IMG/VR virus record: IMGVR_UViG_3300025132_004452
Location: 1-59,888 of that record
From: a virus
Taxonomy: Duplodnaviria; Caudoviricetes
Reading direction: 5' to 3' (one strand)
DNA length: 59,888 nucleotides
This document shows positions 5,991 to 38,800 of the stretch, piece after piece (position 1 is the stretch's first letter; each line of letters opens with the position of its first letter). The notes under the pieces are model-generated. The model was not told where the DNA came from. It ran no database searches and worked only from the letters and a program-made list of their open reading frames with translations. The position numbers and the translations under genes are program-made.

Positions 5991-6421
5991 CTTTTTTTAT
6001 CTTTATTAAGATTTTTAATAGCTACTTTTAAAACCTTGTCACTATAACTAGGTATGCCATTAGTTTTTATTTCAGGTATATCTTCTTCACCTAACATTAT
6101 TCTATACATTCTGTTTAGCAAGCGCTTAAACTTAAATGAAGCTTTATATATATGATACTTTTGAGTTGTTCTATTTCTTCTTCTCCAAACAACTATCCAA
6201 TCTTCTTTTAGTAATCTATTCCATCTTCTATTGTCCCAAGAATAAGAATAAACTCCCATTTTAAAATCTTGTTTTGTAAATAGCTCTAAACAATCTAGAT
6301 ACATTAAAAGCTCTAAGTCAGCATCATTTAAGTCATACTTTTTACAAGCCCATTTTCGTATTATACGATAATGCTTTAAAAGATTAAGTTCTTTAACCTC
6401 TACAGCTGTAAGTTTTCTCAT
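5987..6421 (-). CDS. Winged-helix (MarR-like) DNA-binding protein
   Basis: YDLNDADLELLMYL...RLLKEDWIV...IYKAS pattern resembles a MarR-type wHTH. Confidence 0.5.
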   Translation of the reverse strand: MRKLTAVEVKELNLLKHYRIIRKWACKKYDLNDADLELLMYLDCLELFTKQDFKMGVYSYSWDNRRWNRLLKEDWIVVWRRRNRTTQKYHIYKASFKFKRLLNRMYRIMLGEEDIPEIKTNGIPSYSDKVLKVAIKNLNKDKKR

Positions 6422-6678
6422 AGTACTATAACTACATCAAACTCTTTTATAACTTTATAAGTGTTTTTCTTTATCTCTATGTTAAAGCCAGCTGAACGAT
6501 CATAATATATTTTATCACCGTTTTTTATAACATTAACATCTTCACCTGTCTTAATAACTTTAGCTGTTCTATATCTAATGTCTTCTCTTTGTTTTTCAGC
6601 TAAAATTAAACCTCCTTCAGTTTTAACGGAGGTTTCTTTTATTGGATCTATAACTATATACTTACCTATTGCTTTCAT
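6418..6678 (-). CDS. groES: Co-chaperonin GroES
   Basis: MKAIGKYIVI.P...KTEGGLIL mobile loop; G.D...K.GD.I; adjacent to GroEL. Confidence 0.93.
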   Translation of the reverse strand: MKAIGKYIVIDPIKETSVKTEGGLILAEKQREDIRYRTAKVIKTGEDVNVIKNGDKIYYDRSAGFNIEIKKNTYKVIKEFDVVIVL

Positions 6679-19704: not shown

Positions 19705-20232
19705 ATGACAATTAACGAAAAGTTAAGTAAAATCCAAGTTGAGTTTAAATCGAAGAAAAGTAGATTTAACTCATTCGGTAAGTACAATTTCCGTTCTGCC
19801 GAAGACATTCTCGAAGCAACAAAACCCTTTTTAAAGGAGTTAAACGTTACAGTTACAGTAGATGAAGAGCTAGTATCTTTTGACCCACCAGTTATGCAGG
19901 TTACTGCTAAAATATCTGATGGTAAAGATTCAATAAACTCTAAAGCTGTAGTAGGCGTTGACCTTGATCAAAAAGGTATGCAAATGCCACAGAGATATGG
20001 TGCTGCAAGTTCATACGGTAAAAAGTATGCGCTTGGTAATCTATTCTTGATTGATGACACTCAAGATTCAGATGCAACTAATACACACGGTAAAGCAACT
20101 GCCGCAAAACAAACAATGACTAAAGAGTCTTTAGCTAAAGCCAAAGAATACATTAATAAAGGCGGTAGCTTAAGTGCTATTAAAGCTAAGTACGTAGTCA
20201 CAAAAAAGCATGAAGAAATGCTAACACTATGA
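19705..20232 (+). CDS. ERF-family ssDNA annealing protein
   Basis: FGKYNFRSAEDIL...Q..GAASSYGKKYALGNLFLIDDT.D.D. Confidence 0.88.
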   Translation: MTINEKLSKIQVEFKSKKSRFNSFGKYNFRSAEDILEATKPFLKELNVTVTVDEELVSFDPPVMQVTAKISDGKDSINSKAVVGVDLDQKGMQMPQRYGAASSYGKKYALGNLFLIDDTQDSDATNTHGKATAAKQTMTKESLAKAKEYINKGGSLSAIKAKYVVTKKHEEMLTL

Positions 20233-20960
20233 AAAGAAAAGAAATAATAGATAAGCTTAGAATTGATGAGCATTACTATGGTAATTTTGGTAAACAGTAT
20301 TTAAGTAACTCAGATATATCTACATTACTTAAAAACCCATTAGCTTTAAAAGAGCCTAGTAAATCAAATGTTCATTTTTTGATAGGAGGTTATTTTCACA
20401 CTGCTATATTAGAACCAAACAAAATTAAGAATTTTAAAATTGTTGAGTCTAGTAGTAGGAACACTAAAGCATATAAAGAAATGTCTGGTGGTGAAATGTG
20501 CTTACTGCAACATGAAGTAGATAAGACTGAAGCTCTAGTTCAAAAGCTTATGGATAACAAAGTCTGCAGAGACCTCATCTCAGAAGAAAAAGGAGAATAT
20601 GAAGTACCTGCTATTACCGAGCTCTACGGTCAAATGTGGAAAGGTAAAGCTGACATTGTTAACCACAATGAAAAATTAATAATAGATCTTAAAACAACTT
20701 CTGATCTTGATAACTTTAAATGGAACGCTAAGAAATATAATTATGATTCTCAAGCATACATTTACAGTAAGTTATTTGGTTATGAGTTCGTGTTTATAGC
20801 AATAGACAAAAATTCAGGTCAAATAGGTTTATTCGACTGTTCAACTAACTTTTATAAGTCAGGTGAGTTAAAGGTTGAAAAAGCATCAGAAGCATACGAT
20901 TTATTTTATAACACAGAGGGATTTGACCCTCACCAATATTTTATAAACCAAACCTTATAA
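20229..20960 (+). CDS. PD-(D/E)XK exonuclease (RecE/DUF3799-like)
   Basis: LS.S, G..FHTAILEP, KGKAD, IIDLKTT, YDSQAYIY. Confidence 0.85.
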   Translation: MKRKEIIDKLRIDEHYYGNFGKQYLSNSDISTLLKNPLALKEPSKSNVHFLIGGYFHTAILEPNKIKNFKIVESSSRNTKAYKEMSGGEMCLLQHEVDKTEALVQKLMDNKVCRDLISEEKGEYEVPAITELYGQMWKGKADIVNHNEKLIIDLKTTSDLDNFKWNAKKYNYDSQAYIYSKLFGYEFVFIAIDKNSGQIGLFDCSTNFYKSGELKVEKASEAYDLFYNTEGFDPHQYFINQTL

Positions 20961-20961
20961 T

Positions 20962-21279
20962 ATGGCAGGAATAATAAAAGCAAGCATTAACTTAAATGCA
21001 ATAGACAAATCAAAAATAATTGAAGGTAAAAAAGGTAAATACTTACCTGTAACCATTACCATCAATGACGAACCAGACCAGTTCGGTAATCAAGGGCCAA
21101 TATGTATGGACCAAACCAAAGAGGAAAGAGAAGCTAAAACACCAAAGCAATACTTAGGTAATGTTAAAGTTGTTTGGACTAACGGAACTTTCCCTGATAA
21201 AATACCATATGAAGCAAACGGTCAAGCTCCACAACAAACTAAACAACCAGCAAAAGTAGAGGACGATCTACCATTTTAA
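20962..21279 (+). CDS. Single-stranded DNA-binding protein (putative)
   Basis: Beta-rich body with an acidic C-tail EDDLPF; lies between the exonuclease and primase-helicase. Confidence 0.7.
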   Translation: MAGIIKASINLNAIDKSKIIEGKKGKYLPVTITINDEPDQFGNQGPICMDQTKEEREAKTPKQYLGNVKVVWTNGTFPDKIPYEANGQAPQQTKQPAKVEDDLPF

Positions 21280-21288
21280 TTAAATCAA

Positions 21289-23001
21289 ATGCAAGTCGAA
21301 CAAACAGAGATCAATGGTTTTCAAATTGAAAACTTTAATCAGCACGGCTTAGAAGCAGGAAAACCGCAGGGGACTTGTCCCCTGTGTTCTTCTTCTAGGA
21401 AACCTGAGAATAGAAAAGCAAAGTGTGCTAGCTATGATTGGGAGCGTGGTCTCGGTACTTGCCATAACTGTGATAGCAGTTTTCAATTACACACATACAA
21501 ACGTAAAGGTAAAGCTGAACGTGACTATGTTATACCTGAAATTAAAAAGGTTGATCTTGTAGTTGATAAAACGTTAGAATGGTTTAAGACTAGAGGAATA
21601 TCTAAGGATACACTAGATGAATTAAAAGTTAGTGTTGGTAAAGAATACATGCCTCAAACCGGCAAAGCCGAGAATACTATACAGTTTAATTATTACGTAG
21701 GTGGACAACTTACTAATGTTAAATACAGAGATGGTAGAAAAAACTTTAAGCTTTACAAAGGAGCTGAAAAAGTATTTTATAACATAGATAATATTGTAGG
21801 CCATGATTACTGTGTAATTGTCGAAGGTGAGATGGATGTCTTAGCCTTACATGAAGCGGGAATTACAAATGCAATATCAGTTCCAAATGGAGCTACACTG
21901 AATACGAACAATCTAGACTATTTAGATAACTGTATTGATTATTTTGACGATATGTCTAAGATAATCATTGCGGTTGATTCAGATGCACCAGGACAAGCTT
22001 TACAGACTGAATTAATACGTAGGCTTGGAGCTGAGACCTGTTATATAACTACGTTTGATGATTGTAAAGACGCTAACGAGTACTTAATAAAGTATTCAGC
22101 TAAAGAGCTATTGTCACGTGTTACAAACGCAAAGCCTGTACCTCTTGAAAACGTTACAACGTTTAGAGATATCGAAGATGAAATTACAGACTTTGTTCGT
22201 AATGGATTTAAAAAAGGTTTTCAAATAGGTTTAGAAAACTTTGATAATATATTTTCTACGTATACTAAACAATTTATAACAGTCACAGGTATACCTAGTT
22301 CAGGTAAGTCAGACTTTGTAGATCAAATGGTTGTAGGTTATAATAAAGAATATCAATGGAAAACAGCATTTGCTTCACCTGAAAACGCACCAACATATTT
22401 ACACGCACATAAGTTAATGCGTAAAGTATGGGGTGATATGCCTGACAAAGGAGATATTGGTGGAGATAAATGGAATCAAGTAGCTGAACATGTTAATGAT
22501 AACTTTTTCTTTATTGATATGGAACGTTATACATTGGAATCTGTATTACGTAAAGGAGCTGAGCTTGTTAAACGTAAAGGTATTAAATGCCTTGTTATAG
22601 ATCCATTTAATAAGGTTAGAGACGTTGACTGTACAACAGAGGATGTTAACCGTTACACAATGGAATATCTAACTAAGATCGAAACCTTTGCTAAGAAATA
22701 TGACGTGCTAGTATTTATAGTGGCTCATCCAACTAAAATGTATAAAACGCAAGATGGAAAAATTGAAGAACCAACTATGTATAATATTAAAGGCGGCGGC
22801 GAATGGTACGATGCTAGTTATCACGGGCTTCTCGTCCATAGGGATTATGAGCTTAAGACAACTAAAGTTAAAGTTCTTAAGTGTAAGTTTCAAAACCTTG
22901 GTGAAAACGGTGCTGAAGCATTTTTTAAGTGGGAACCACGCTCAGGATGCTTTATTCCGGAGGTAGTGCCAGAGCTTGAAGAGAAAATGCCATGGGAATA
23001 A
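21289..23001 (+). CDS. Primase-helicase (T7 gp4/Twinkle-like)
   Basis: CPLC...CHNC zinc finger; TOPRIM IVEGEMD and D.D..G; Walker A GIPSSGKS; VIDP; VAHP. Confidence 0.95.
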   Translation: MQVEQTEINGFQIENFNQHGLEAGKPQGTCPLCSSSRKPENRKAKCASYDWERGLGTCHNCDSSFQLHTYKRKGKAERDYVIPEIKKVDLVVDKTLEWFKTRGISKDTLDELKVSVGKEYMPQTGKAENTIQFNYYVGGQLTNVKYRDGRKNFKLYKGAEKVFYNIDNIVGHDYCVIVEGEMDVLALHEAGITNAISVPNGATLNTNNLDYLDNCIDYFDDMSKIIIAVDSDAPGQALQTELIRRLGAETCYITTFDDCKDANEYLIKYSAKELLSRVTNAKPVPLENVTTFRDIEDEITDFVRNGFKKGFQIGLENFDNIFSTYTKQFITVTGIPSSGKSDFVDQMVVGYNKEYQWKTAFASPENAPTYLHAHKLMRKVWGDMPDKGDIGGDKWNQVAEHVNDNFFFIDMERYTLESVLRKGAELVKRKGIKCLVIDPFNKVRDVDCTTEDVNRYTMEYLTKIETFAKKYDVLVFIVAHPTKMYKTQDGKIEEPTMYNIKGGGEWYDASYHGLLVHRDYELKTTKVKVLKCKFQNLGENGAEAFFKWEPRSGCFIPEVVPELEEKMPWE

Positions 23002-23259
23002 ATGCTACCTAAAAAAGTAGAATGGAAACATCCTATGTGGAATAGAGAAAACACTATAGCATATCAATGGTGTATAAAACATGGTATTAAAATATACTCC
23101 GTGCCTTGCAGTAAGGGTTTTGGTAACAAGACTTGTTGGATAGAGGTAAATATAAACGGAAGAAAACAGTTAAGTCCAAAGACTTATGGTCCAACAGAAT
23201 TATGGCCAAAAGTTATGGAACTATATAAATTTTATTATGACAAAAACATTCGCAAATAA
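23002..23259 (+). CDS. Hypothetical protein
   Basis: ORF track. Confidence 0.65.
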   Translation: MLPKKVEWKHPMWNRENTIAYQWCIKHGIKIYSVPCSKGFGNKTCWIEVNINGRKQLSPKTYGPTELWPKVMELYKFYYDKNIRK

Positions 23260-23950
23260 ATTTACAAACGCAGATGAAGCTTTTCAGTATTGGTATCAAT
23301 GTATAGAAAAATACGGTACTGAATTTGCAGGTACTAAAGCTTTGTTTAATATAGGTTTTCAAATGGATAAACCTAATGAAAACCACATAAGACCAAGTTG
23401 GCGTAAGTGGAATCATGATTATGCAGAAGCTGAATGGCAATGGTATCTATCTGGTGATCGTAATGTAGAAGCGCTAGGTAAACTATATGGAAAAGTGCCT
23501 AGTATATGGAAACGTATGGCTGATAAAAAAGGTGAAGTGCACTCTAACTATGGTTATCAGTGGAAACGTAACGAACAATTAGATAAAGTTATAGCTTTAT
23601 TAAAGAGAGATCCAGAAACCAGACAAGCAGCAATATCAATATATGATGGTAAAGAAATAAATACTTATTGGAAAGATACGCCTTGTACTTATGCAGTTCA
23701 ATTCACAGTTGTAAAAGATCATTTAAATATGGCTGTTACAATGCGATCTAATGACCTCTGGTACGGCTTCTGTAACGATCAATATTGTTTTGCACAATTA
23801 CAAAAATTAGTTGCAGAAAAAACAGGATATGAATTAGGTTCTTATTTCCATTTTGCACATAACTTACATTTGTATAAAAAAGATTTAGACAAATACTTAC
23901 CGCAACGTCCTGATAATCTTATGCAAAGAAAAGCTGACCATTATGGATAA
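23237..23950 (+). CDS. Thymidylate-synthase-fold enzyme, dCMP hydroxymethylase (T4 gp42)-like
   Basis: GEVHSNYG, DTPCT catalytic Cys, MRSNDLWYGFCND with Asp at the ThyA Asn177 position; likely start 23237. Confidence 0.8.
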   Translation: MTKTFANKFTNADEAFQYWYQCIEKYGTEFAGTKALFNIGFQMDKPNENHIRPSWRKWNHDYAEAEWQWYLSGDRNVEALGKLYGKVPSIWKRMADKKGEVHSNYGYQWKRNEQLDKVIALLKRDPETRQAAISIYDGKEINTYWKDTPCTYAVQFTVVKDHLNMAVTMRSNDLWYGFCNDQYCFAQLQKLVAEKTGYELGSYFHFAHNLHLYKKDLDKYLPQRPDNLMQRKADHYG

Positions 23951-24803
23951 AGAAACAACATATTATTTATACCATATACCGGGTAAAAAAATAGGTGTAA
24001 CGCGTGATCTTATAGATAGGGTTACAAACCAACAAGGCTATGCCTTAGACGAAGTAGAAGTTCTAGAACAAAGTAAAGATATTGATTATATATCTGACCG
24101 CGAGTTAGAACTTCAATTGTCTTATGGCTACAGAGTTGATAGACAAAAGTATAAAGACTTATACATTAATAAACCAAAAAACCAAATAATGAATATAAAC
24201 GCAACAGAACAAACCTCAACATTTCCAGTACCTTTAAATAAGTTAAAAGGTAGACTAATGGATGAATTAGGTAAAACGTGGGAAACTACTCATGGTCAGT
24301 TTAAAATATCACCAAGAACGATAGACTGGATTATGAAAAATGCTAAAACGTCAATGTACACCACTGAAAGAACTTATATATATAATAAAGCTTTCGCAAA
24401 AGAAATGTTAGTCGAAAACTTACAAGAGTACGCTAACATGCTAGACAAAAGAGTTAAGCAGACTAATGGTAAAGGAATGACTTGGAATAAAAGCTATTTA
24501 AAAACAGACAATAGGTTCCAGTTAATAAGAGACTGGGCTGGTGAACGTGGTCTTTATTCTAAAGGCGATACTAAAACTCAATTTTGTAAACTAATGGAAG
24601 AAGCTGGAGAACTTGGTAGAGCAGTATTAAAAAACGATCAAGCAGAGTTTGAAGATGCTATTGGCGATATGGTTGTTGTATTAACTAACCTAGCTCATTT
24701 AGGTGGAACAACAATTGAAGACTGTATTGACTCAGCATACAAAGTTATATCAAAAAGAACTGGTAAAATGGTTAACGGAACATTTGTAAAAGATGATAAG
24801 TAA
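23943..24803 (+). CDS. GIY-YIG-like N-terminus fused to MazG-like NTP pyrophosphatase
   Basis: YYLYHI...KIGVT.DL..R; C-terminal KLMEEAGEL...EDAIGD. Confidence 0.75.
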   Translation: MDKETTYYLYHIPGKKIGVTRDLIDRVTNQQGYALDEVEVLEQSKDIDYISDRELELQLSYGYRVDRQKYKDLYINKPKNQIMNINATEQTSTFPVPLNKLKGRLMDELGKTWETTHGQFKISPRTIDWIMKNAKTSMYTTERTYIYNKAFAKEMLVENLQEYANMLDKRVKQTNGKGMTWNKSYLKTDNRFQLIRDWAGERGLYSKGDTKTQFCKLMEEAGELGRAVLKNDQAEFEDAIGDMVVVLTNLAHLGGTTIEDCIDSAYKVISKRTGKMVNGTFVKDDK

Positions 24804-25080
24804 AGAGATAAAATTTAGAGATCCTGTTGTTGAAACAGTTGTAGATAAGTTTGTAGGTCGATCAGACGTAGGCTTTAAAAAATATGGCCAAACATTAGAT
24901 TCAGAACGTAAGACTGGAGTTAAAGATCTAGCAGGTTATTTAAACGATGTGCAAGAAGAACTAATGGATGCAATATTATATATTCAGGCAGCTAAAGATG
25001 AGTTGGCTGAAGCTAAAGACAAAGTCTATGGCAACAGTGTTAACGGTTTACCATACTATGTCTCGGATATTGCGTCGTAA
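24793..25080 (+). CDS. Small all-alpha NTP-pyrophosphatase-like protein
   Basis: R...G..KYG.TL...QEELMDAILYI. Confidence 0.55.
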   Translation: MISKEIKFRDPVVETVVDKFVGRSDVGFKKYGQTLDSERKTGVKDLAGYLNDVQEELMDAILYIQAAKDELAEAKDKVYGNSVNGLPYYVSDIAS

Positions 25081-25510
25081 AAAACGCGGTCCAGTTAGAG
25101 CTAAGAAAAAAGTTGTAGATGGTATAGAGTTTAAGTCAGGACTAGAAGCATATATGTATAAAGCTTTGAAAGAAGCTGGTATACAAGCTGAGTACGAAGG
25201 GGTAAAATACGAACTTACCCCTTCATTTGACTTTAATAATAAAAGTTATGAACGACAAGGAAATGGAAAAGGCGAGTACAAAGATCGCGGAGGCAAGAAA
25301 ATACTTAAGATCTCTTACACACCTGATTTTACAGGAACAGGATTCATCATTGAGTGTAAAGGAAGGGCAAACGAATCTTTTCCTATACGTTGGAAATTAT
25401 TTAAGAAATATGTCAGCGAACGACTTCATAGCGTTACTCTATATAAACCACAAAATCAAAAAGAATGCGACGAAACCGTGAGCCTAATTCTTGGGAAAAA
25501 AAAGATATAG
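25058..25510 (+). CDS. Holliday junction resolvase, T7 endonuclease I-like
   Basis: FKSGLE, YTPDF, IIECKG; likely start 25058. Confidence 0.85.
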   Translation: MSRILRRKKRGPVRAKKKVVDGIEFKSGLEAYMYKALKEAGIQAEYEGVKYELTPSFDFNNKSYERQGNGKGEYKDRGGKKILKISYTPDFTGTGFIIECKGRANESFPIRWKLFKKYVSERLHSVTLYKPQNQKECDETVSLILGKKKI

Positions 25511-25603
25511 CAAGAAGAAAATACGCTGAACGTCAATTAGAAAAGTTTATAAAATGGAGCGTTGAAAGTAAAGGTTATTTAAAATATAAAGAATTAATAG
25601 AGT

Positions 25604-25828
25604 ATGAAAGAAAGTACTTTGCTAGAAATGCAAAATAAAATTAACGCTATGACAAGAGTGTTACAGCAATTAATAAATGAAAATACGCAGTTAAGAGATT
25701 TATCTGTTGGATCTTTAGAGATAATAAAACTTTTGCCTGGATATGATGAAGCATTAGAATCTTTAAAAGATAGTGTAACTAAAAAAGAGAAAGAGAAAGA
25801 TGGAGATATCAAATCAGATACTAAGTGA
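25604..25828 (+). CDS. Coiled-coil hypothetical protein
   Basis: ORF track. Confidence 0.65.
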   Translation: MKESTLLEMQNKINAMTRVLQQLINENTQLRDLSVGSLEIIKLLPGYDEALESLKDSVTKKEKEKDGDIKSDTK

Positions 25829-27662
25829 GATAACAGTATACATGAAGTATGCTAAATATATACCAGAATTAAACCGAAGAGAAAGTTGGCATGAGCTTGT
25901 AACTAGAAACAAGGAAATGCATCAAAAAAAATATCCAGAATTAAAAGATGAAATTGAAAAAGTATATATCGATGTCTACAATAAAAAAGTTTTACCATCT
26001 ATGCGGTCGCTTCAATTCGGAGGTAAGCCGATTGAAATATCACCTAACCGTGTCTATAACTGCGCTTATTTACCTATTGATCATGTTGATTCTTTTAATG
26101 AAGTAATGTTTTTACTACTTGGTGGAACAGGCGTAGGTTACTCAGTACAGCAGCACCACGTTGCTAAACTACCTCCAGTTAATAAACCTTATAGTAAAAG
26201 AACTAGAAGATTTTTAATAGGTGACTCAATAGAAGGTTGGGCTGACGCTATTAAAGTATTAATGAAATCATATCTTGGTGACAAAAGAAGTTCACGTATA
26301 GAGTTTGATTACTCTGATATACGCCCTAAAGGTGCGATGTTAGTAACGTCTGGTGGTAAAGCACCTGGACCTCAACCACTTAAAGAATGTATAGTAAAGA
26401 TAACAGGAGTCTTAGACTCAAAGGAGGATGGAGATACGATCTCCACTATAGAAGTACACGATATAGTTTGCCATATTGCAGACGCCGTTTTAGCTGGTGG
26501 GATTCGACGAGCAGCATTGATCAGTCTGTTTTCAGCAGACGACGATCAAATGATAAGTTGTAAGTCAGGTGACTGGTGGGAAACTAATCCACAACGTGGT
26601 CGTGCTAATAACTCTGCTGTTTTAATGAGACATAAAATAACTAAACAATTTTTTATGGATTTATGGAAACGTGTAGAACTTAGTAATGCTGGTGAACCTG
26701 GTATATATTTTAACAATGATAAAGACTGGGGTACAAACCCTTGTTGTGAAATAGCTTTACGTCCATATCAGTTTTGTAACCTGTGTGAAGTAAATGCTAG
26801 TGATATAGAATCACAAGAAGATTTAAACGATAGAGTGAAATCAGCTGCGTTTATAGGAACATTACAAGCAGGTTATACTGACTTTCATTATTTAAGAGAT
26901 GTATGGAGAGAAACAACAGAAAAAGACGCTCTGATAGGGGTTTCAATGACTGGAATAGGGAGTGGAACAGTCCTAGGATACGACATGACGAAAGCCGCTC
27001 AATTAGTAAAAAGAGAAAACACGAGAATAGCAAAGGCAATTGGAATTAATCCAGCTGCACGATGTACAACTGTAAAGCCTGCTGGGACAACATCTCTGGC
27101 ATTAGGAACCTCATCTGGTATTCATGCATGGCATAATGATTATTATGTACGTAGAGTAAGAGTTGGTAAAAATGAAAGTATATATAAATACTTAGTTGAA
27201 AACCATCCTGAATTAATAGAAGATGAGTTTTTTAGACCTCATGACACCGCTGTAATTAGTATACCACAAAAAGCTCCAACTGGCGCGATACTTAGAACTG
27301 AATCACCATTTCAATTACTTGAACGTATAAAAAAAGTAGCTACAGAGTGGGTTCAGCCTGGTCATAGAAAAGGATCTAACACTCATAACGTTTCTGCTAC
27401 AGTTAGTTTAAAAACTGAAGAGTGGGAAGATGCAGGAGAATGGATGTGGGAAAACAGAAAACATTACAACGGGTTATCTGTACTACCTTATGATGGTGGA
27501 TCATATACTCAAGCTCCTTTCGAGGATATTGACGAAGGAACTTATATAAATAAGTTACAGCACTTAACTAACATAAATTTATTAAATGTTATCGAAACTG
27601 AAGACAACACTGATCTTAGTGGTGAGCTTGCTTGTGCTGGTGGTGCTTGCGAAATTACTTAA
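25800..27662 (+). CDS. nrdJ: Class II (adenosylcobalamin-dependent) ribonucleotide reductase
   Basis: YNC, GGTGVG, GGIRRAA, TNPCCEI, TVKPAGT, C-terminal CAGGAC; no beta subunit seen. Confidence 0.92.
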   Translation: MEISNQILSEITVYMKYAKYIPELNRRESWHELVTRNKEMHQKKYPELKDEIEKVYIDVYNKKVLPSMRSLQFGGKPIEISPNRVYNCAYLPIDHVDSFNEVMFLLLGGTGVGYSVQQHHVAKLPPVNKPYSKRTRRFLIGDSIEGWADAIKVLMKSYLGDKRSSRIEFDYSDIRPKGAMLVTSGGKAPGPQPLKECIVKITGVLDSKEDGDTISTIEVHDIVCHIADAVLAGGIRRAALISLFSADDDQMISCKSGDWWETNPQRGRANNSAVLMRHKITKQFFMDLWKRVELSNAGEPGIYFNNDKDWGTNPCCEIALRPYQFCNLCEVNASDIESQEDLNDRVKSAAFIGTLQAGYTDFHYLRDVWRETTEKDALIGVSMTGIGSGTVLGYDMTKAAQLVKRENTRIAKAIGINPAARCTTVKPAGTTSLALGTSSGIHAWHNDYYVRRVRVGKNESIYKYLVENHPELIEDEFFRPHDTAVISIPQKAPTGAILRTESPFQLLERIKKVATEWVQPGHRKGSNTHNVSATVSLKTEEWEDAGEWMWENRKHYNGLSVLPYDGGSYTQAPFEDIDEGTYINKLQHLTNINLLNVIETEDNTDLSGELACAGGACEIT

Positions 27663-27679
27663 CTTTTAAAACTTACATT

Positions 27680-27718
27680 ATGTGCGAATTATGTCAAGGT
27701 CTTTGCGGAGGCTGCTAA
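27680..27718 (+). CDS. 12-aa Cys-rich micropeptide MCELCQGLCGGC
   Basis: ATG 27680 to TAA 27718, between the nrdJ stop and the terminator. Confidence 0.5.
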   Translation: MCELCQGLCGGC

Positions 27719-27722
27719 ATAA

Positions 27723-27757
27723 TAAAAGGGGAATCACAAATTGCGGTTCCCCTTTTT
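27723..27757. terminator. Bidirectional intrinsic terminator at arm convergence
   Basis: AAAAGGGGAATC...GGTTCCCCTTTTT. Confidence 0.85.
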
Positions 27758-27822
27758 ATCTTTTCTATATATTCTATAAAGAATATACGAATAACCAAAT
27801 GGTAGTATACCACTAGCAGTTG

Positions 27823-28995
27823 CTACCGATTTAAATAATAAGTCCATTGTAAGTCCATATTTGACCCTATGGTAGGGTTTGTTGTTATAGATGCAAAACT
27901 ACTAGCATCCTGTGTAAATGTACTTGTATTTGAACAGTCTTTAAACATATTAATTAAAGTCATGTTACAATTATGTTTAACTTCCCAGTTAATAAAACTT
28001 AAATCACCGTTAGTGTAACTTGTAGCATCTGCTATATTGTCTAACTCAACATCTTTTCCTAGTGCAAAACCTTGTACTAAAACGTTGCTACAAATTCCTG
28101 TAGCACCTTTTCTAAAATCAGCAACTTCACCATCAATACCTAAAGCGTTACAGTTTTCTGTAGCGCCAATAACTGTTATACTATCTAATGTAAAAGAACC
28201 AGTATTAGATCCTTCAGGACCATCTATTTCTAAAGCGTGATCTGAAACGTTTGTCAACACCACCATTGCGTTAGATATTGTTCCTGAGTACCCTTGGTCG
28301 ATATCTATACCATCATCTCCTTGTCCCCATACTAATAAGTTAGTAGCGTTAACTGTACCACCAAAAAATTCAATTCCATCATCTACATTGTCAACTACTT
28401 CTATATTATCTATAACAGTACCTCTACCTACAGCACCAAGCGTTAATCCATTAATTTCATTTCCTTCTCCTATTTCAGCTCCACCATGTCGTATAGATAC
28501 ATATTTAAATATACCTGAGTTATCATTATCGTTGTTACCTCCATACAAACCAATTTGATCACTAGCTGGTATACCATCTATTTGAAATTCAGTTACATTA
28601 CCTGTAAAAGATCCTGTTGCTTCACCTAATATTATAACTCCACCCCACATACCTCTTGTACCTACAGAAACTTCTGACATAGAAGTAAATATTATAGGTT
28701 CTTCTTTAGTTCCTAATGCCATTATTTTAGATCCTTTAGCTATAATTAAAGTTGAAGCACTACTACCTGTTCCAGGCGCAGCTTTAATTAAAGTTCCAGG
28801 TTCTATAGTAAGTGTAGCACCTTCCGAAACAGAAACTCTATTGTGTAACTCCCATATAGTATCTTTACTTAAAGTTTTATTACTTGTTATTCTTCCATGT
28901 AATTGATGAGGTTCATATGTTTTTAACTCTACCGGCTCTGGTTTATCGCAGCTAACTAGAAGCGATAATCCAATTAATAATTTTAATATTTTCAT
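27823..28995 (-). CDS. Bacteroidota-type surface lipoprotein with beta-helix fold (host-derived moron)
   Basis: Lipobox LLVS-C; WGGVIILG, YVSIRHGG, EINGLTLGAVG, DDGIEFFGG, DDGIDIDQG. Confidence 0.75.
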   Translation of the reverse strand: MKILKLLIGLSLLVSCDKPEPVELKTYEPHQLHGRITSNKTLSKDTIWELHNRVSVSEGATLTIEPGTLIKAAPGTGSSASTLIIAKGSKIMALGTKEEPIIFTSMSEVSVGTRGMWGGVIILGEATGSFTGNVTEFQIDGIPASDQIGLYGGNNDNDNSGIFKYVSIRHGGAEIGEGNEINGLTLGAVGRGTVIDNIEVVDNVDDGIEFFGGTVNATNLLVWGQGDDGIDIDQGYSGTISNAMVVLTNVSDHALEIDGPEGSNTGSFTLDSITVIGATENCNALGIDGEVADFRKGATGICSNVLVQGFALGKDVELDNIADATSYTNGDLSFINWEVKHNCNMTLINMFKDCSNTSTFTQDASSFASITTNPTIGSNMDLQWTYYLNR

Positions 28996-29548: not shown

Positions 29549-29807
29549 CTCTATTTTGTTTAGTCATTTCTTTACACCATTCTCTAAGCTCTTGTATTTC
29601 ATCTTCAAGATCTTTTATATGGTTTGTTTGCCATTGTTGTTTTAAATCATATTCTATTCTATCTATAACAGCCTTAGGCATTTTTTTAGCTTCTTCTATA
29701 TCACTTTGTAGAGTGAAGTACATTCCCATGAATGACGATGTTACTACTATTATACTAACAATAGTTTTTAAATCTAATCTAAATTCGGTGCTTTCTCCTA
29801 TTTTCAT
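29529..29807 (-). CDS. TM plus coiled-coil protein
   Basis: N-terminal hydrophobic helix followed by a coiled coil. Confidence 0.65.
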   Translation of the reverse strand: MKIGESTEFRLDLKTIVSIIVVTSSFMGMYFTLQSDIEEAKKMPKAVIDRIEYDLKQQWQTNHIKDLEDEIQELREWCKEMTKQNRDGNKKR

Positions 29808-32800
29808 TTTTTCATTAGCTCTATAAGTTTTGCTACTCTATCTTTTTCGTATCTTAATGCACGAATCTGTTTCTTGCTTAAACCTAAACTATCTAAAATT
29901 TCAACTTGTCTAGGTTTTTTTAATTTTTTATACTTAGTAACTTCTTTTTGCTTGTTTTCTACATCTATGTCTTTTTGTGTTAATAGTTTTTTAGGCGAAT
30001 ATTGACCTTCATTATCTCTCTTAGCTTTCATTCTCTTTCTATAAGCTGACTTAGCTTCTTTTTGAGAATCTATATATTCTTTTCTTTCTTCAGTAGAATT
30101 AAGCTGATAATCTTTCCAACCTAATAAAAGAGATATTCTTTTCCAAGTTTGCTGTTCATCTTCTAAAGCACTTCTAACATTTTCTGATTTACTTATTAGT
30201 CTATCAACAGGAACGTTAGTCAGTCCTGATATAACATATGCAGCTGATTTATAAGCAGGATCATCTATACTCCATTTAGCTTCATCATGTTTATAACCTT
30301 CGTACTTCCAAGTTAAACCAGCTTGTCTAAGCTTACTTAGTTTTATATCTATAGGAGGAGAAAAGTTTAACATTTCATTTGCAGCGTCTTCGTAGTTAGG
30401 ACCTGGAAAAGTACCTTCTTTTTTAGACTCTTTGTATACTTTTCTACCAACTGATATTAATGTAGATAAAGCAACTCCATATATACCTGTACCATTTAAC
30501 ACCGTATTTAACATACCATTGGCTACATTTAAATATCTTTCGTTTTCACTTTCTTCTTCCTCTTCTTCATTAAAAGCTAATGCGAATAAACCTTGTTGTA
30601 AGGCTGAAAATATCATACTTTGTACAGCCATATAATAAGTAACTCTTGATATGTTACTCACATCACTTTGGAACTGTGTCATTCCTTTACGCTTTCTTCT
30701 GTTTATCAAATCTAAGAAAGATTTTTTACCTAACCTATTCATTTGCATAGGTGTATTTTGAAAAGCTAATATTAACCTACCTAAAGTACTCGCTTGTTGT
30801 TGTGACACTCTATCTGGACGAGATGATTGCTGTGACTCTTCTGCTATTTCTCTAAATTCTAAAAACGCTTGTTTTTTAGCATCAGCCTCACTCATACCTT
30901 CCTTCATTAAAGCATTTATTCTATTCCTATAAAATGTAGCACCACCTGATGCAATAGCAAAACTATCTGCAAATTGTGTTGGTAAGTAACCTTTAGAAAG
31001 TATATAAGCTATAGCTGCTTTAGCTTTATTTTTACTTGTAGCTGCAGCATCTGCTATTTCAGATTCACTCACGTTTAATTTTAACCCATTACGTCTTTCA
31101 ACCAAAAACTCAGAGTTCATTAACTCAGAAAAATCTTTCCAATATTGAGTTTGATTAGCAAAAGCTTTACCAGCATTATATATATTATTACTACCAAAGT
31201 CGATAAAGTTAACAGCTGATATAGTCTGAAGTAAAGCTGATCTCATGTTAAAAAACATAACTGTACCAACAGAATTATTAATATAATCTAACAATCTATT
31301 TTCTATTTTACCCATTTTGTTAGATCTGTTTCTACCAGACTTCATCCTAGAAATCATATCTTCCATAGCGTCTCTCCAGTTAGTACCAAAAGCAGCTTCC
31401 ATCTTGTTAAGATTTTTAGGTGAAAATATTAAATCAATATTATCTTGCCATTCTTGTAAGTACTTACTTCTTTTACCTGTTCTAAGACCGTCTAATAAAT
31501 CAGTTGATATAGTACCTGCTAACCAATTGGCTGTTGGCGCGGCGTAACCGTCACCTTTGTTTATGTCAATTAAGTTTTGAGCAAAAACATCTATAGCTTG
31601 GTTTTTCTTAGCAAAGGCTAACACTTGTTTTAAATCTGCTTTAGATATTCCTGGTATATCCATACCTTGTTTGTTCCACGCTAATATTCTAGCTACATCA
31701 GAGTGAGTGAATTCACCAAATGCTATTTTATTTAAGTTCTTAGGTATTAAACCCTCTTTAATTAGCTGCTCTTTTAAAACTTTAAAGTCATTGATCATTC
31801 TATTTTGATCACGAGATAAGTTTTCCATAGCTCTACCGTAAGGTTCAATTAAATGCTTATTGAAAAAGTCCATTTGCATGTTACCTATTTCACCTTTGCC
31901 TAACATAGAATATAATAAACCTACAAAATCCTCTGCAGAAGGTGGAATAAATAGTTTAAACTTACCTTTTTTTCTACCTACAAGTCTTGCTTTAACATCT
32001 GAATATTCTTTTTCAGATTTTATACCAGTTTTGTGTTCTATAATATCATTTACAGTTTGATCTACGGTTTTACTAAATTTAATTTTAGCTTGTTGCACTG
32101 CTGACTTAACATCTATAACACTTAAAGCATCTTTAACCGCTTGCACGTTTTGTATAGCATCATCTGCAAAATAAAAATCATTATAACCCTCAGCAGCTTT
32201 ATTAACTACCCAGTTAGCTTTAGCAGCACCTGTAGAGTTACCTAGACCAGTTATATTTTTTAAAGGTATATTAAGACCTAAACTATCTAAAAACTCTTTA
32301 ATTGCAGCTTGTGACTCAGGAGCTCTTGCTGTTAGCACAAAAACATCTTCTGTTCCTCTAGCTGCTTGTATTTTTTTAGCAACGTCTAATAATGGACCTG
32401 GCTTACCATCTCTAACTATATTGAAGTCACTAAAGTCAAACTCACCTCCTTCATTTAATATCTCTCCACCTCGTTCTGCAAATTCCTCAGCCGTTAATGT
32501 ACCTTTAGTTCCATCAGGCATAGTATAAAATACATTACTTTTTGTTCTTGCTAAAGTATCGTCAAAGTCGAACACTCTTATTTTTTTAACAGGAGCGTTA
32601 GGATCTCTAGCTATATCTAAAGCTTTATCCATCATATTAGCTTGCTCTATAGTCTGTTTATTAGTTTTAGTTTTAGAAAAAGGAGTAACACCACTATTTG
32701 ATTGAGATTTCTCATTAGCTTGAGTTGCTTCGTGTTGAGATTTTGCTAAAGCCAAGTGAGGTTTTAATATTTCATTTGCTATTTTAGAAGTAATTTGTCC

Positions 32801-35800
32801 ATCAAATATTTCAAATAATAATTGTTGTTGAATTTTTATAATACCAGGTGTTTGTAAATCTTTACTTACTTCTAAACCAAATTCTTTAGCTATTGAATTA
32901 CCATTAGACAATATAATAACATTAGGATTTATACCAGTGTGTTGATCACCATTTTCATCTATTCTAACTTGACTATTTACATTAGAGTTAAAATATCTTA
33001 TCCATACTGGTTTTAATCCTAACAATACGTCTGCTACATATTGAGAAGGAATATTTTTAATATAATCAAATTTAATTCCATCCGGTCCAACACCTTTTAA
33101 CATGCCGTCGTAAACTTTAGGTAAAGCTCCTTGAAAAAACGATTCTAAGGCTGGATCTATATATTGTTCTACATTATCTTGTGCCATTCTGTTTAATAAA
33201 AATTTCATTAAATCAGATGCAGGTTCTGTATGTTCTTCTACGTTTTTTAAATTAAGAGTATTTCCAAATTCTATAATTGAACCTGTTCTCCCAAAGTGAT
33301 TTTGAGAACCACTAGTAGAAGATAAAAGCCCTGCTACAACAGGTAAGAATTTAGCTTTATCAAACTGAACAGCGTCATTTAAAGACATGATTAATTCTTT
33401 AAAACCATCTCTTTTATTAATTTGCTCTTGCGTAAACTTAGGAGTACCTAACTCTCTTTGCATTTTAGCACTATAACCTTGTCTCTTAACAGCTTCTTTT
33501 ATATTTTTACTAGTTTCTACACCTTTGTCATCTATCTTAGTTTCTAAAGCAAAAGTATTTCCTCTTTTTTTAGCTTCTGCTATAGCGTTTTTTACTTGAA
33601 GAGCGTTAGCGAATAAAAACGTTCCTACAGGAGCGATTTTTAATTGAACTGATTTTTTAACAAAATCTTCATCTGAGTTTAATATTGTAGATCCATCAAT
33701 TAATTTATATTCTCTAAGGGTTTCTGTAGGTTTATTTAATAATCCATTTTTTTGTAAACGTTTTTTAACTTTAACACTTAGTGGAGTTCCAAGATTTACA
33801 TTATCTCCACCATTAGATAATGTTCCAGCCGTTAAAGCTGATTCAGGTAGGAAATTTATTAATGCACTGTTTTTATCAAAAAATATTTTATCTATAAGTT
33901 CTTTTTTACCCTCAGGAGTGTTTGCATCTATAGCGTCAAGATCATAGTTAGTTACTATTTCTTTAAAGTCCGCTTGCTCAGCTAGTAGTTGTGGACCAGG
34001 GTCGGCTTGAAACAAGTATGCTGTTTTAGCAATAGCTTTACTTTTAGCCTTTGGTAATTTAATTTTAATTTTACCACTATCTTCTACTATTCCCAATAAA
34101 GTGTTAGAATATAAGTTTAAGACTTCTTGTACGTTTTGATTTTTAGAAGATATATAACTTTTAATCAATTCACTTAAATCTTTTCCGTTTTCTATTTTAT
34201 TAATAATGTTTGAACCTTGTAAAAACTGTTCTAAGTTATTGATTTCATTTAAAACCTCGTACTGTTGTAGATTAGTTTTATTTGTTTTACTAAATTTAGA
34301 ACCAGGCACTCTATCAATATTCTTACCTACAACCGCTGTGTAATTCTCAGCTTGTCTTAATCCTTGTAACTCATAAATATCTTTAATTCTGTTTTGCACA
34401 GCTGGATCTTCTAAAACCTCCATAGTAGCGTCAAACGCTAACTCTTGAGCTATAGCACCTGCTAACGCATCTTTTCTAGTTCCTTTAGTCGATGCTCCTA
34501 CGTTTGAGCCTAGAAAATAATCCATAAACTCTGATCTCTTAACGTCTTTCTTTCTAAATAAAGGATTATTATCTGGTCTAGCTTGTTTACCTGTGGCTGG
34601 ATCAATTAATGGCTCTACAAACTGTCTAAATCGTTTGTTAGCGGTTGATTGTGATATAGCATTAAACACTGTTTGAAAGTTTTCACTTAAGAAAGTTTCA
34701 TAATTAGCTCTAGTACCTATAAACTTTTTTATCTCCTTAAACAATTCTTTGTCAAAAGCTTTTTTAAGATCTTCTCTAAACTTTTTATTGCTTACCTCAG
34801 GTAATTTAGTTCCAAGAACTTTACGCACAGAGTCTAAAACCTTATTATATATAGGTCCACCTTTCTCTATACCTAATTTAGTTCTCATGTTATCTATAGT
34901 ATCCTCTACTATATTAGCATCAATTCCAGCTTCGATATTAGTATCATCTGCAATAGTTTCTCCTATAGTTCTACCTTCTTCACCTAGCTTTTGATCTGTA
35001 GATACTTGTACGCCTGGTTTCTTAGCCTTTTCCCTCTTAGCTTTGTTAGTTACATCACCTACACGTCTGCCAATATAAGAGTTCATCCAAGCAAATAAAC
35101 TGTCATTTTTACTAGGGTCAAAACTCATTAAGTGATCAGCTAGCTTATCTCTAGTTTCTTGTATAATATTCTCTCTACTCTTGTCGTATATAGTTTGACC
35201 AGTAGCCATTTTATCTATAATGAGTCCATCAAACTTGCCTTGACTAATAGCTGTATACACTTTGCTAAATGCTCTATCTTTATCTTGAAGAAACTCGGCT
35301 TTAGTCATTTTATATTTGCCATCTGGACCTTTAGGACCTGGAGCTTCATTGGTTAAGTCTGTTAGCTCTGATCTTTCAGCTTTAGTTAAAGATAGTTTAC
35401 TTTTACTAACAGGTTTAGAATCTTTTTTAATTGTTTTCTTTTTACGAGATATTTCAGCAGTACCTTCAGCTATTGATTTAGTTAAACCACTTAGCTCACC
35501 TGTTTCAAAAGAATTATTATAACTAGTAATCATGTCAAATACATCTTTACCAGTTTTTATTTGTCCTGATCCATCATTAAATTTCTGAAACCTACCAAAC
35601 ATCTTATTGTACAAAGTTCTATCTGCTTCTAAATTATTCTGTCTCATAAAATCACTAAGCCTAGCTAAGCTTTCTTCAGCTACTAAAGTGGGGTTAGATA
35701 AATCACCTTTTGAGTCATACTCTCCATATAATTCTTTAGTTTCTAAAAAGTTTTGATATGCTTCTTTATAGTTTTTCTTAACATATGACTCAAGATCTTG

Positions 35801-38800
35801 AACTAAACCTACAGCATCAGGATTGTTTTCCATAAATTGCTTAAACAACGTATGGTGACCTATTTCATGAGATTGTACTGTAGAATTATTTCTGTTTAAA
35901 GCAAAAGTTATAGGTAGATTTATATTTTTAGTACCTTTACTACCGTCTTCGTTTGTAACTTCAATAGTTAGATTATCACCAAAAGCCATACCATTAACAG
36001 TTGCATCGCCTCTTGAAGCTTTGTCAGCTACTTCAAACTGCTGCTTCATTAATTCTTTTACTTGTAGCTTTTCTGAATCGTTTAAATCAGTTCTACTATC
36101 TACATATTCTAAACCTGCATCTAGAGCTTGTTTGTTGTTGTCACCAACAACCATTTCTACATTACCTAAAGTACCGTTTTTAGCTCTATAAGCATCAGCA
36201 AACTTTTTAGCTCTACCCTTATCAGCACTCCACTCTGCATTACTTAAAGTAAAATTCTTAACTGCTTCAACGGCCTTTAGTTCAATTAGCTGTTTGTTTA
36301 TAAGATCAGCTGCTGTTTTTTCGTCAAGATTTTTATCACTGTTTATTTTATCTATTTCAGATCTTATCTTGTGCTCAGCATTGAAACCATTTATTAGTCT
36401 TTGTCTATCTTCTTTAGTTAAAGACATTATTTCAGATCTAACTTTTTCTTGATCAGCTAATTGTTCTTTTGCTAGATCATGCATTTGTTTCTCTACTAAA
36501 GCCTTAGACTTAACTATAGCATCATGAGCTCCTGTTTTAGGCGTTAAACCAGCTAATTGCGTTTCATAACCTTTTATGGTATTACTTAATCTTAATATCT
36601 CTTTTCCTCTTTCTGCTATTTTAGCATTTCTATCAGGACCTCTAAAAGCTTGATATGTTTGTGCGACTAAACCAGGTGATTGCATAGTGCCAGACATTAC
36701 TAAACCAGAAACCATAGATTCAGTAAAACCATCTAGCATAGATACGTCTTTATTGCCTAGTATATATATCTCAGCAGCATTTTGAGATAGAGTAACAGCT
36801 CCTTCACCAAACGCTTCACCTGGAACACCTTTGACAAAATCTTTAGCACCTTCTTTTAAGTTTAACCATCGTTGATTAATCTTATTAGATATTGGCGAAC
36901 CTTTTTTAGCCACTTTGCTTAAGTCAAAAGCTTTTCTTAAATTTTTAGCACCTAGTTTAAAGTTGCCTAAAGTTATTTTTTCACTTGCATATTCAGCTAT
37001 ACCATAAATTCCAGCTGTACCATAAAATTGTAAAGCATTTATTTCTTCTGGTTGAATTTTATAAGTTTCATCATCACCTAAAGGATTAAAGCCAAACTCT
37101 TTTTTGAAATCTTGTATATATTTCATTTCGTTTAAGTTCCACTTTTCACCTTCCATACGCTTTTTCATATCGTACATTTGGTTACCACTTTCACTTAGTG
37201 CAGAAAGCACTAGACCACCACCGCCAGGAACTACTATTGATAAACCAGTGTTAAGTAATTGACCAGTTAGCATTTCAGTACCCCATCTCATACCGGCTTT
37301 AATACCATCTATTTCATCAAATCTTGCAGCAGGTCTATTTCTATTCAATAACTCTTCACCAAACTCAGAAGATTTTTTAAGCAAGTCATCAGCGGTTTCA
37401 TCTGCAAAGTTAGCAACATCCATAGCTAAGTTTACAGCATCACCTCCAGTTTCTCCAAACACATCATATGAAAAGTCGCTTATAGCTTTTACAGTGTCAT
37501 CATCTTTTAAGTCAAATCCAACGTGTTCTAAAACATTTAAAGGATTTGAAACTTCATTTAAAACAGCGCCTAGACCAGTAACTATTCTTACAGCGCTATT
37601 AGCAAGAATATTTTCATGGATTTCTAAAACGTTATATGTTTTTTGAGTTTTATCTATTATAGCTTGAGCATTATTTCCTTCAAACTGTATATTTCCTAAA
37701 AACTCCATATCAGCTTTTATATTTTTTTCAGCTAATATTACACTATTTTTTATGCTATTAAACTGATCAACGTCTTTTTGAGTTGCGTTAGGATCATTTT
37801 CTATTTTCTTTTTTAAATCATTTAATTTCGCGGCTTGAGCCAATATATTAACAGATTGCCCCTCGATGTTGTTGAGTATAACATTGGCTTCGTAATCACT
37901 GGTTTTGTTACTTAATTCTAATAGTCTTCCTAGATCTTTTTTATTTTTTTGATAATCTTCCCTAGAGTTTTCCATTCCTAAAACCTCATCAGCAGTAGTG
38001 TTAAAAAGTTTTTCAGCAATCTTCTTTTGTATAATAAACTGAGGAGCACTAGAGACAAGATTAACCACGTTGTTCCAAGCACCAACTCCTTGTTTATCTT
38101 CAAAAGTTTCTAAGGCTTCATCTATTGTATCTCTAACTTTTTTTGAATCAAGTTTTTCTTCAGATATTAAAGAAGTAGCAGACATTCTACTTGTTAAATC
38201 TAATAATTCAGGGCTTATATTTATATCTTTTACTAACTCAGGGTTTTTTGTTACCTCTTGTATAGAAGGTAAATATATTAACTCATTGTCAGTTCCTAAA
38301 CTAGCAACTGCATCATCTTTGTTTGTTGTTGTTTTTTTACCAGTCTTTTTTATATCAATAACCATATCCTGGTATTGATCTAAAAAGTTTTTTGTTAATT
38401 CATTTGATTTTCTACTAGCTTGCTTAGCCCAAGTAGTTGAATCAGAGCCTTTTCTACTTTCATTATTGCTCAAAGGTTTTAATTTCCAAGTAGCTGCATT
38501 ATTTGGATCGTATTTTTCACCATACCATTTCTTAGCTAGTTTATTATATGATATATCTTTCCATCTTTTTTTATTACTATCTATAGGTAAAGATCTATTA
38601 ATAAGATCTTGATTCTCCTCTTTGTTAGCCAATGCATATATTAAAGAAGACCCAACGTATTTACCACCAGACTGTTGTAATAAATTAGCATTTTTTAAAG
38701 ATTCTTTTTTCTGTGTTATTTTTTCATTAATTTCTTCATCAGTTGCTTGGGTTTCTATTTCAATGTTTTTTAACAATTTAGCAGCTGTTAATCTATCATT

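Follow-up and report, generated by a model that had tools for sequence, protein, structure and literature searches.

A predicted dCMP hydroxymethylase beside a MazG fusion protein: a plausible 5-hydroxymethylcytosine cassette in a group of marine phages

Can a phage exchange the cytosine of its DNA for 5-hydroxymethylcytosine (5hmC) with a very small set of genes of its own? The question is raised by a locus in IMGVR_UViG_3300025132_004452, a linear virus contig (Caudoviricetes) of the IMG/VR database. The window analysed here is the whole record of 59,888 bases, which CheckV rates as 93% complete, so that about 7% of the genome is unseen. Three overlapping open reading frames (ORFs) on its plus strand, at 23237-25080, encode a protein with the thymidylate synthase (TS) fold, a fusion protein that ends in a MazG-type domain, and a small protein referred to as g95. 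A preliminary description of this DNA, made from the letters and their translations, had placed the three frames correctly and proposed that they form a T4-style cytosine-modification cluster.

We consider the interpretation of this locus as a 5hmC cassette to be plausible from its sequence. If it is true, a widespread group of ocean phages packs 5hmC DNA, which would bear on restriction, CRISPR and modification-dependent defences in marine Bacteroidota-type hosts, on virome sequencing methods that are biased by base modification, and on automated annotation that names such genes thymidylate synthase. Moreover, a set without a kinase, a polymerase or a sugar transferase would show how little a phage must encode to change a base. 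The enzyme class, the residue rules and the pairing of TS with PRA-PH/MazG are already in print, and the advance would therefore concern how widely the cassette occurs and how little it contains, rather than its kind. What is new here is the contrast with the enzymes of phages Xp12 and PaMx74, the domain anatomy of the fusion protein, a negative result for g95, and the absence of polymerase and kinase in near-complete relatives.

Active site and kinship of the TS-fold enzyme

The TS-like protein, whose length was counted from the ATG that its relatives use, matches PF00303 with an E-value of 1.8e-29 (103.1 bits) over profile positions 46-218 of 266; as the match stops at 218, the C-terminus of a TS is absent. 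Its best match in the PDB is the T4 deoxycytidylate (dCMP) hydroxymethylase gp42 (1b49, E 2.5e-17), followed by the cytidine monophosphate (CMP) hydroxymethylase MilA (4.8e-17) and the first thymidylate synthase (7.1e-17). Because this margin is narrow, we relied on published residue rules for the class of the enzyme. Its scores with the NCBIfam thymidylate synthase equivalogs do not exceed 87 bits, where the cut-offs lie at 108-576 bits.

In the numbering of E. coli thymidylate synthase (ThyA), the change of Asn177 to Asp selects cytosine, Leu143 to Asp or Glu goes with hydroxymethylation, and Asp169 to Asn marks the 5-hydroxy-dCMP synthases (PMC13326640). A residue other than His at 147 together with Asp at 177 is enriched on cytosine-modified metavirome contigs (PMC8670742), and dCMP hydroxymethylases are proposed to be recognisable by an Asp at the third position ahead of the Cys, by Ser-x-Tyr and by a missing C-terminal tail (PMC6400193). 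In T4 numbering, the hydroxymethylation signature is Asp145 and Ser94/Tyr96, the cytosine selector is Asp179, and the catalytic residues are C148 and Glu60. Finally, Ser167 and Arg126' go with deoxyribose substrates, their counterparts in the CMP-specific MilA being Ala and Lys (PMC5175136).

In the window protein RSNDLWYGFCND aligns with RSCDVFLGLPFN of E. coli ThyA and with RSNDVVFGFRND of T4 gp42 (HMMER and MAFFT), which puts an Asp at the position of ThyA Asn177. The signature in ThyA numbering is E58, S-x-Y94, D143, C146, T147, S167, D169 and D177, with Arg126 also present, and the motifs read KDTPCT, HSNYG, RSND...CND and ETRQ. After position 177 the window protein has 56 residues, compared to 87 in ThyA and 67 in T4 gp42, and the C-terminal tail with which ThyA closes its active site for hydride transfer is missing. 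Among the 120 best metagenomic relatives of the protein, E58, C146, S167 and Asp169 are each present in 120, Asp177 in 119 and S-x-Y in 115. The combination D143/T147/D169/D177 is found in 118 of them, with one giving no match to the search expression and one having another pattern.

Control enzymes were taken from named records and read at positions 143/147/169/177. ThyA and RB69 Td have L/H/D/N; the enzymes of SPO1, M6, ViI and phiW-14, which belong to the 5-hydroxymethyldeoxyuridine type, have D/N/D/N; RB69 gp48, of the 5-hydroxydeoxycytidine type, has E/T/N/D; and T4 gp42, of the 5-hydroxymethyldeoxycytidine type, has D/T/D/D. Since it retains Asp169, the window enzyme is not of the RB69 gp48 type that makes 5-hydroxy-dCMP. 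The verified dCMP methylases of Xp12 and PaMx74 do have Asp177, but they combine it with Asn143/Pro147 and a long ThyA-like C-terminal tail, which sets the window enzyme apart from the 5-methylcytosine (5mC) type. As far as sequence can tell, the protein carries every published hallmark of a 5-hydroxymethyl-dCMP (5hm-dCMP) synthase. The preliminary description had set the TS-fold protein beside T4 gp42 by the Asp in place of Asn177, and the alignment, the signature residues, the rank of gp42 in the PDB and the missing tail all agree with a cytosine enzyme of the hydroxymethylase type rather than an ordinary ThyA.

In a maximum-likelihood tree of 23 rows, ThyA and Td form one group (100/100), the deoxyuridylate (dUMP) hydroxymethylases another (99/98), and the window clade joins gene 42 of Bacteroides phage BF503P2 (89/96). 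The next relatives from cultured phages, those of Enterococcus phage VPE25 and Lactobacillus phage ATCCB, have 33-35% identity and the D/T/D/D signature and directly adjoin beta-glucosyltransferase genes, which is consistent with a hydroxymethyl product in the wider branch.

The fusion protein and its conserved locus

The second ORF encodes a protein of 286 amino acids, for which an alignment of 49 orthologues and an AlphaFold2 (AF2) model with a mean predicted local distance difference test (pLDDT) of 84.4 indicate three parts (Table 1). The MazG domain at its C-terminus is solid. PF03819 matches the fusion protein with 27.1 bits against a cut-off of 22 and is found in all 49 orthologues, in which the acidic residues E219, E220, E223, D238 and D242 are invariant, in keeping with the metal-binding EExxE...ExxD motif of the four-helix MazG fold. 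Structural comparison with VIA gives a Z-score of 10.1 for 1vmg (root-mean-square deviation 2.6, 83 residues aligned), 10.0 for M. tuberculosis MazG, 9.0 for the MazG-like protein of cyanophage S-2L (7ody) and 6.1-6.3 for dimeric dUTPases, and the Foldseek matches of the fusion model include DCTPP1. These structural neighbours mix a dGTP/dATP enzyme (7ody) with dCTPases (DCTPP1). In the scheme proposed below, the most likely, putative substrate of the domain is deoxycytidine triphosphate (dCTP).

For the N-terminal domain, AF2 predicts a beta-beta-alpha-beta-alpha topology (block pLDDT 75-92), with Y10, G18, R26 and E54 invariant. T5orf172 is matched by 24 of the 49 orthologues (best E 5.9e-4), MUG113 by 18 and GIY-YIG by one, all below the Pfam cut-offs, and the window protein itself has no Pfam match to any of these three at E <= 1. 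The nearest Atlas clusters bear T5orf172 (score 0.97), and GIY-YIG_SF proteins in BFVD match with E-values of 3.6e-3 to 1.4e-2. A GIY-YIG-like identity is thus a consistent, weakly supported lead, and the domain may be a nuclease. The middle domain has a block pLDDT of 81-94 up to residue 150 and lower values toward the linker; PHROG matches of this region are phrog_1994 and phrog_14652, both 'DNA binding protein', and phrog_1992. Proteins of Streptococcus and Staphylococcus phages align from about residue 130 onward, where the region is annotated 'DNA-binding protein' and is likewise joined to MazG. The fold searches used the whole fusion model, and MazG matches filled their lists, with the N-terminal and middle domains barely sampled. 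No record among 925 from cultured phages covers 80% of the whole fusion protein.

Relatives of the TS-like protein occur on 511 IMG/VR viral-contig stretches, of which 80 were examined and 75 have at least 1.5 kb downstream. A MazG gene lies within 1.2 kb of the TS-like gene in 74 of these 75 loci, 71 times with an N-terminal extension and three times as a stand-alone MazG of 100 amino acids; the TS-like gene of the remaining locus is situated elsewhere. In 46 of the 48 loci with enough upstream sequence, the TS-like gene comes after a primase-helicase, and the reductase follows in 34 of the 55 that have at least 5.5 kb downstream. One relative (L052, IMG/VR, 5163 bases) departs from this order: its TS-like gene lies between a ligase gene and g208 and does not follow the primase-helicase, and the stretch contains no MazG gene.

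The region, or at least a portion of it, turns up in sequencing runs of 13 studies, most of them on marine or viral metagenomes. Two marine DNA runs have contig pieces (Logan contigs) that match it without mismatch. The four runs examined in this form gave DNA almost identical to the region from marine metagenomes and short fragments from RNA libraries; such contigs speak neither to transcription level nor to base modification. Across 21289-27662, the marine DNA runs X1 and X4 have 3579 and 2015 short contig pieces at 90-100% identity, a piling that points to very high strain micro-diversity breaking the assemblies. A nucleotide search of 20001-28000 against cultured phages returned only the ribonucleotide reductase and scraps, in eight records, and no publication on such a cassette turned up in our literature searches, which covered marine and flavobacterial phages.

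The TS-like, fusion and g95 genes overlap by 8 and 11 nucleotides. Upstream, the small ORF g85 begins one base after the primase-helicase gene ends and shares 23 nucleotides with the beginning of the TS-like gene. Related contigs have homologues of g85 in front of their TS-like genes, and in 35 loci the match extends to query residue 80 or further.

The g95 protein is modelled by AF2 (pLDDT 83.8) with helices at 11-31, 35-41 and 46-80. No Pfam nucleoside triphosphate pyrophosphohydrolase (NTP-PPase) family was found among its 44 orthologues, a PDB profile search gave no match at E <= 10, and the fold searches gave a best Foldseek E-value of 3.4, VIA Z-scores of 4.8 or less and nothing supportive in Atlas. 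Against the neighbouring MazG fusion, hhalign gives a probability of 2.4% over 15 columns, and the sole likeness of g95 to MazG is a short local resemblance of its QEELMDA helix to the ExxD helix. With no support from Pfam, PDB profiles, hhalign, Foldseek, VIA or Atlas, g95 as an NTP pyrophosphatase was dropped, which is not to say disproved.

The preliminary description had spoken of a GIY-YIG-like plus MazG fusion and of a second NTP-PPase-like gene. The MazG half of the fusion is confirmed and the GIY-YIG half holds as a domain-level likeness below cut-offs, whereas for the second gene, g95, no match to the superfamily came from Pfam, PDB profiles, profile-profile comparison or fold searches.

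Table 1. Features of the locus and of its downstream neighbours in the window.
Feature	Position	Strand	Evidence
g85, conserved small ORF	23002..23259	+	weak phrog_5945 match (function-less family), E 2.4e-4
Predicted deoxycytidylate 5-hydroxymethyltransferase (5hm-dCMP synthase), TS fold, 237 amino acids	23237..23950	+	PF00303, T4 gp42 1b49, signature residues
Fusion ORF	23943..24803	+	49-orthologue alignment, AF2 model
Fusion ORF, GIY-YIG-superfamily-like N-terminal domain, T5orf172/MUG113 type, residues 1-76	23943..24170	+	AF2 topology, weak profile matches
Fusion ORF, middle alpha/beta domain, residues 83-175	24189..24467	+	conserved block M83...Y147, PHROG matches
Fusion ORF, MazG-type all-alpha NTP pyrophosphohydrolase domain, residues 190-286	24510..24803	+	PF03819, VIA, EExGE...D..GD motif
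g95, conserved 95-residue helical-hairpin protein	24793..25080	+	69/75 loci with room, AF2 model
DUF1064 / Holliday-junction-resolvase-like endonuclease	25070..25510	+	PF06356 E 1e-10, phrog_190; in 69/75 loci
Class II (B12-dependent) ribonucleotide reductase	25800..27662	+	phrog_367 E 3e-128; TIGR02505 RTPR 258 bits

Proposed mechanism and competing explanations

Family annotation of the window with Pfam and PHROGs on 78 ORFs found no glycosyltransferase, deoxynucleoside monophosphate (dNMP) kinase, deaminase or DNA polymerase, and detected no carbamoyl- or aminoacyl-transferase family. A Walker A scan picked out only the helicase and three implausible places, so that the statement of the preliminary description that no glycosyltransferase or dNMP kinase is recognisable can be kept. 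Six-frame searches of the record with DNA_pol_A, DNA_pol_B and Thymidylate_kin were negative, as were six-frame searches with these models and AAA_18 in five relatives rated 98-100% complete (63-96 kb). The lineage, in which these searches found no family A or B polymerase, does encode a ligase, ERF, an SSB-like protein and a primase-helicase. It seems to rely on the host replisome and polymerase and on host kinases and, given that no phage dNMP kinase or DNA polymerase is recognisable, we propose that these host functions serve the cassette.

The fold and active-site signature of the TS-like protein, the domain make-up of its neighbour and the conserved gene order are observed features, and we propose a mechanism that would connect them. 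The class II reductase, which is nearest to the ribonucleoside-triphosphate reductase model TIGR02505 (below its cut-off of 340 bits), likely supplies dCTP to the cassette. The MazG domain would turn dCTP into dCMP, which would feed the hydroxymethylase and at the same time deplete canonical dCTP, a role like that of T4 gp56. The TS-like enzyme would then convert dCMP, methylene-tetrahydrofolate and water into 5hm-dCMP, host kinases would raise this product to the triphosphate, and the host replisome would build the 5hmC nucleotide into phage DNA. Here we infer the substrate and product of both enzymes, the steps that depend on the host, and the modification of the DNA itself. TS and PRA-PH (MazG-like) domains are reported to co-occur on cytosine-modified contigs (PMC8670742), and a T4-like active site with an adjoining MazG suggests that the DNA probably holds modified cytosine. 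That the TS-like protein is a dCMP C5-hydroxymethylase, that MazG hydrolyses dCTP and that virion DNA carries 5hmC with no evident sugar decoration is, taken together, the reading we think probable, with real room for error. A bolder version is doubtful in our view: with polymerase and kinase supplied by the host, two dedicated proteins might suffice for a very common marine phage lineage to replace C by 5hmC, and the fusion might couple the destruction of dCTP by MazG with the cutting of cytosine-containing DNA by its GIY-YIG part, uniting the work of gp56 and endonuclease II in one polypeptide.

Several points weigh against a 5hmC cassette. Modified DNA is so far a prediction from sequence. 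Domains of this MazG type are found in 925 phage records, chiefly from phages with Gram-positive hosts, and are unspecific to cytosine modification; MazG alone is therefore no sign of it, while its constant position beside the TS-like gene is. The phylogeny that the preliminary description had suggested does separate the ThyA/Td and dUMP groups, but it gives no junction of the window clade with T4 gp42, the split having 31/49 and T4 a long branch. With such values among the Asp177-type lineages, we treat the clade as a separate lineage with the same active-site solution and not as a demonstrated T-even offshoot. Palindromes that contain C are depleted in the window, namely CATG (90 observed against 156 expected, z -6.4), GGATCC (0 against 6.7) and GGTACC (2 against 11.3). 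This would be unexpected if all C were shielded and is suggestive as weak counter-evidence; 5hmC does not block every restriction enzyme. Over the whole window GATC, CCGG and GCGC are not depleted. AATT is depleted too (436 observed against 534 expected, z -6.1), and GATATC occurs 4 times against 15 expected. Furthermore, searches by Walker A motif, Pfam and PHROG found no dNMP kinase, and the published in vivo assays co-expressed a phage dNMP kinase (PMC13326640; preprint 10.1101/2024.12.05.627091), so incorporation without one is hypothetical. Lastly, homologues of the Asp177 type from metaviromes often make 5-methyl-dCMP (5mdCMP), as did five of the seven tested in a preprint (10.1101/2024.12.05.627091).

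This last point leads to the possibility that the TS-like enzyme methylates dCMP, like its counterpart in Xanthomonas phage Xp12, and that the DNA carries 5mC. Asp177 also marks dCMP methylases, and the seven homologues of the preprint, five of them 5mdCMP makers, were linked to deaminases. However, 5mC phages usually pair the enzyme with a deaminase of the dCMP family, and Pfam detected none on the 78 ORFs; where Xp12 and PaMx74 have the long tail with Asn143/Pro147, the window protein is tail-less (56 residues against 87) and has Asp143, Thr147 and the S-x-Y of T4. We consider a methylase improbable, and of the products that the preliminary description had allowed, 5hmC, 5mC or another derivative, the 5hmC type is the one favoured and 5mC is disfavoured by the comparison with Xp12 and PaMx74. 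Another derivative is what would result if 5hm-dCMP, or some other C5 product, were modified further by unrecognised ORFs, the DNA then carrying hypermodified cytosine instead of plain 5hmC. There are about 50 ORFs without a family to do so, g85 and g95 are conserved beside the enzyme, and in VPE25 and ATCCB the related genes have glucosyltransferase neighbours. We nevertheless think this unlikely, as annotation of the window gave no glycosyl-, carbamoyl- or aminoacyl-transferase and no kinase-like family, g95 is a 95-residue helical hairpin and hardly an enzyme, and the retained Asp169 excludes the 5-hydroxy-dCMP type.

A further explanation does without modified DNA: the cassette would drain the dCTP and dCMP pools of the host, and its product would hardly enter DNA for want of a kinase that accepts it. 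The lack of a phage dNMP kinase or DNA polymerase in the record and in the five relatives rated 98-100% complete fits this, as does the depletion of C-containing restriction-type palindromes. Conversely, every characterised phage enzyme of the same signature that is named in the literature consulted serves DNA modification (PMC13326640; PMC8670742; PMC6400193), a dead-end product would waste folate one-carbon units, and the signature is tightly conserved in 118 of 120 relatives, so we give pool draining little credence. By far the least probable explanation is that of the public annotation, in which the gene is an ordinary thymidylate synthase that makes thymidylate from dUMP. PF00303 and the NCBIfam thymidylate synthase models do match, and JGI calls the relatives 'thymidylate synthase', which is the mis-annotation as thyA that the preliminary description had foreseen. 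The equivalog score is far under its cut-off (87 bits against 327), however, and Asn177, His147, Leu143 and the C-terminal tail, on which the choice of dUMP and hydride transfer depend, are replaced or missing.

Genome setting and comparison with known systems

The locus lies in a plus-strand block at 12-27.7 kb that reads, in order, ligase, sigma-like protein, ERF recombinase, PD-(D/E)XK protein, SSB-like protein and primase-helicase, then the TS-like gene, the MazG fusion, g95, the DUF1064 resolvase-like gene and the class II ribonucleotide reductase. The start of the DUF1064 gene is uncertain, its ORF being open from 24968. Minus-strand blocks at 1-11.5 kb and 27.8-59.9 kb hold the genes for terminase, portal, virion and lysis proteins and for a GroEL/GroES pair; the product of 41108-42883, one of the virion proteins, has a crAss-type muzzle domain at its C-terminus. 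With this domain, a contig of about 60 kb and relatives that span 57-96 kb, the term 'small podovirus' used in the preliminary description is a loose one.

Several other genes may be mentioned. A 3154-residue ORF at 29804-39268 (minus strand) has no Pfam or PHROG match and lies upstream of the virion-protein genes that include the muzzle-domain gene; a very large protein of the virion, or one that is ejected, as in the crAss/N4 kind, is a possibility. The minus-strand stretches 6418-8216 and 58411-59004 together encode a GroEL of 513 residues (PF00118), a GroES of 86 residues (PF00166) and, next to the terminase, a second PHROG match to 'co-chaperonin GroES'. Where the replication block gives way to the structural one, a 390-residue ORF without a family match (27823-28995, minus strand) begins with a lipoprotein-like signal, MKILKLLIGLSLLVSC.

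Among cultured phages, the closest homologue of the TS-like protein is gene 42 of BF503P2, annotated as deoxycytidylate 5-hydroxymethyltransferase, which has 47% identity and the same D/T/D/D residues. BF503P2 differs from the window in having a second TS homologue of the Asp177 type and no adjacent MazG gene in the annotated stretch. Its TS homologues lie about 2 kb apart (L092:512-1165 and 1150-1956; L088:1363-2043), and in front of the more divergent copy stands an ORF with the P-loop GGCLSGKT, which might encode a nucleotide kinase of a kind that the window phage is without. In Agathobaculum phage AB434P2, a gene (L096:2860-3522) labelled 'deoxyuridylate hydroxymethyltransferase' has D143/T147/D169/D177, and by these residues the label is probably wrong. 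The contigs of the MetaGPA study, which screened a coastal sample, share Asp177, a residue other than His at 147 and MazG/PRA-PH on the contig with the window; they often have carbamoyltransferase or deaminase genes, whereas the window phage has neither (PMC8670742).

The MazG domain compares with the T4 dCTPase/dUTPase gp56 in its proposed role, the conversion of dCTP into dCMP that feeds the hydroxymethylase and excludes C from DNA. The two differ in family and context: gp56 matches PF08761, the dimeric dUTPase family, the best BLASTP segment between them is 20 residues long (E 0.016 in a single comparison), and the window MazG is fused to two other domains. We take the PF08761 dimeric dUTPases to belong to the same all-alpha NTP-PPase superfamily as MazG and, as the family is another one and similarity is not significant, the likeness is functional, within one superfamily. 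T4 endonuclease II (DenA) belongs to the GIY-YIG nucleases and nicks DNA that contains cytosine. The fusion protein resembles it in the GIY-YIG-like topology and the weak T5orf172/MUG113 matches of its N-terminal domain; the match is to the T5orf172 branch and not to DenA.

T4 as a whole has a dNMP kinase, a DNA polymerase of its own and glucosyltransferases, part of which can be read from the T4 record, whereas none of these was seen in the window. Its gp42 (EC 2.1.2.8; 1b49, 1b5e, 6a9a) is only 28% identical to the window protein, and sisterhood of the two is unsupported in the tree (31/49). Nevertheless, both have the TS fold, a similar length (246 and 237 residues) and no ThyA tail, and both share the catalytic Cys, Asp177, Asp143, Thr147, Asp169, Ser167 and the S-x-Y motif.

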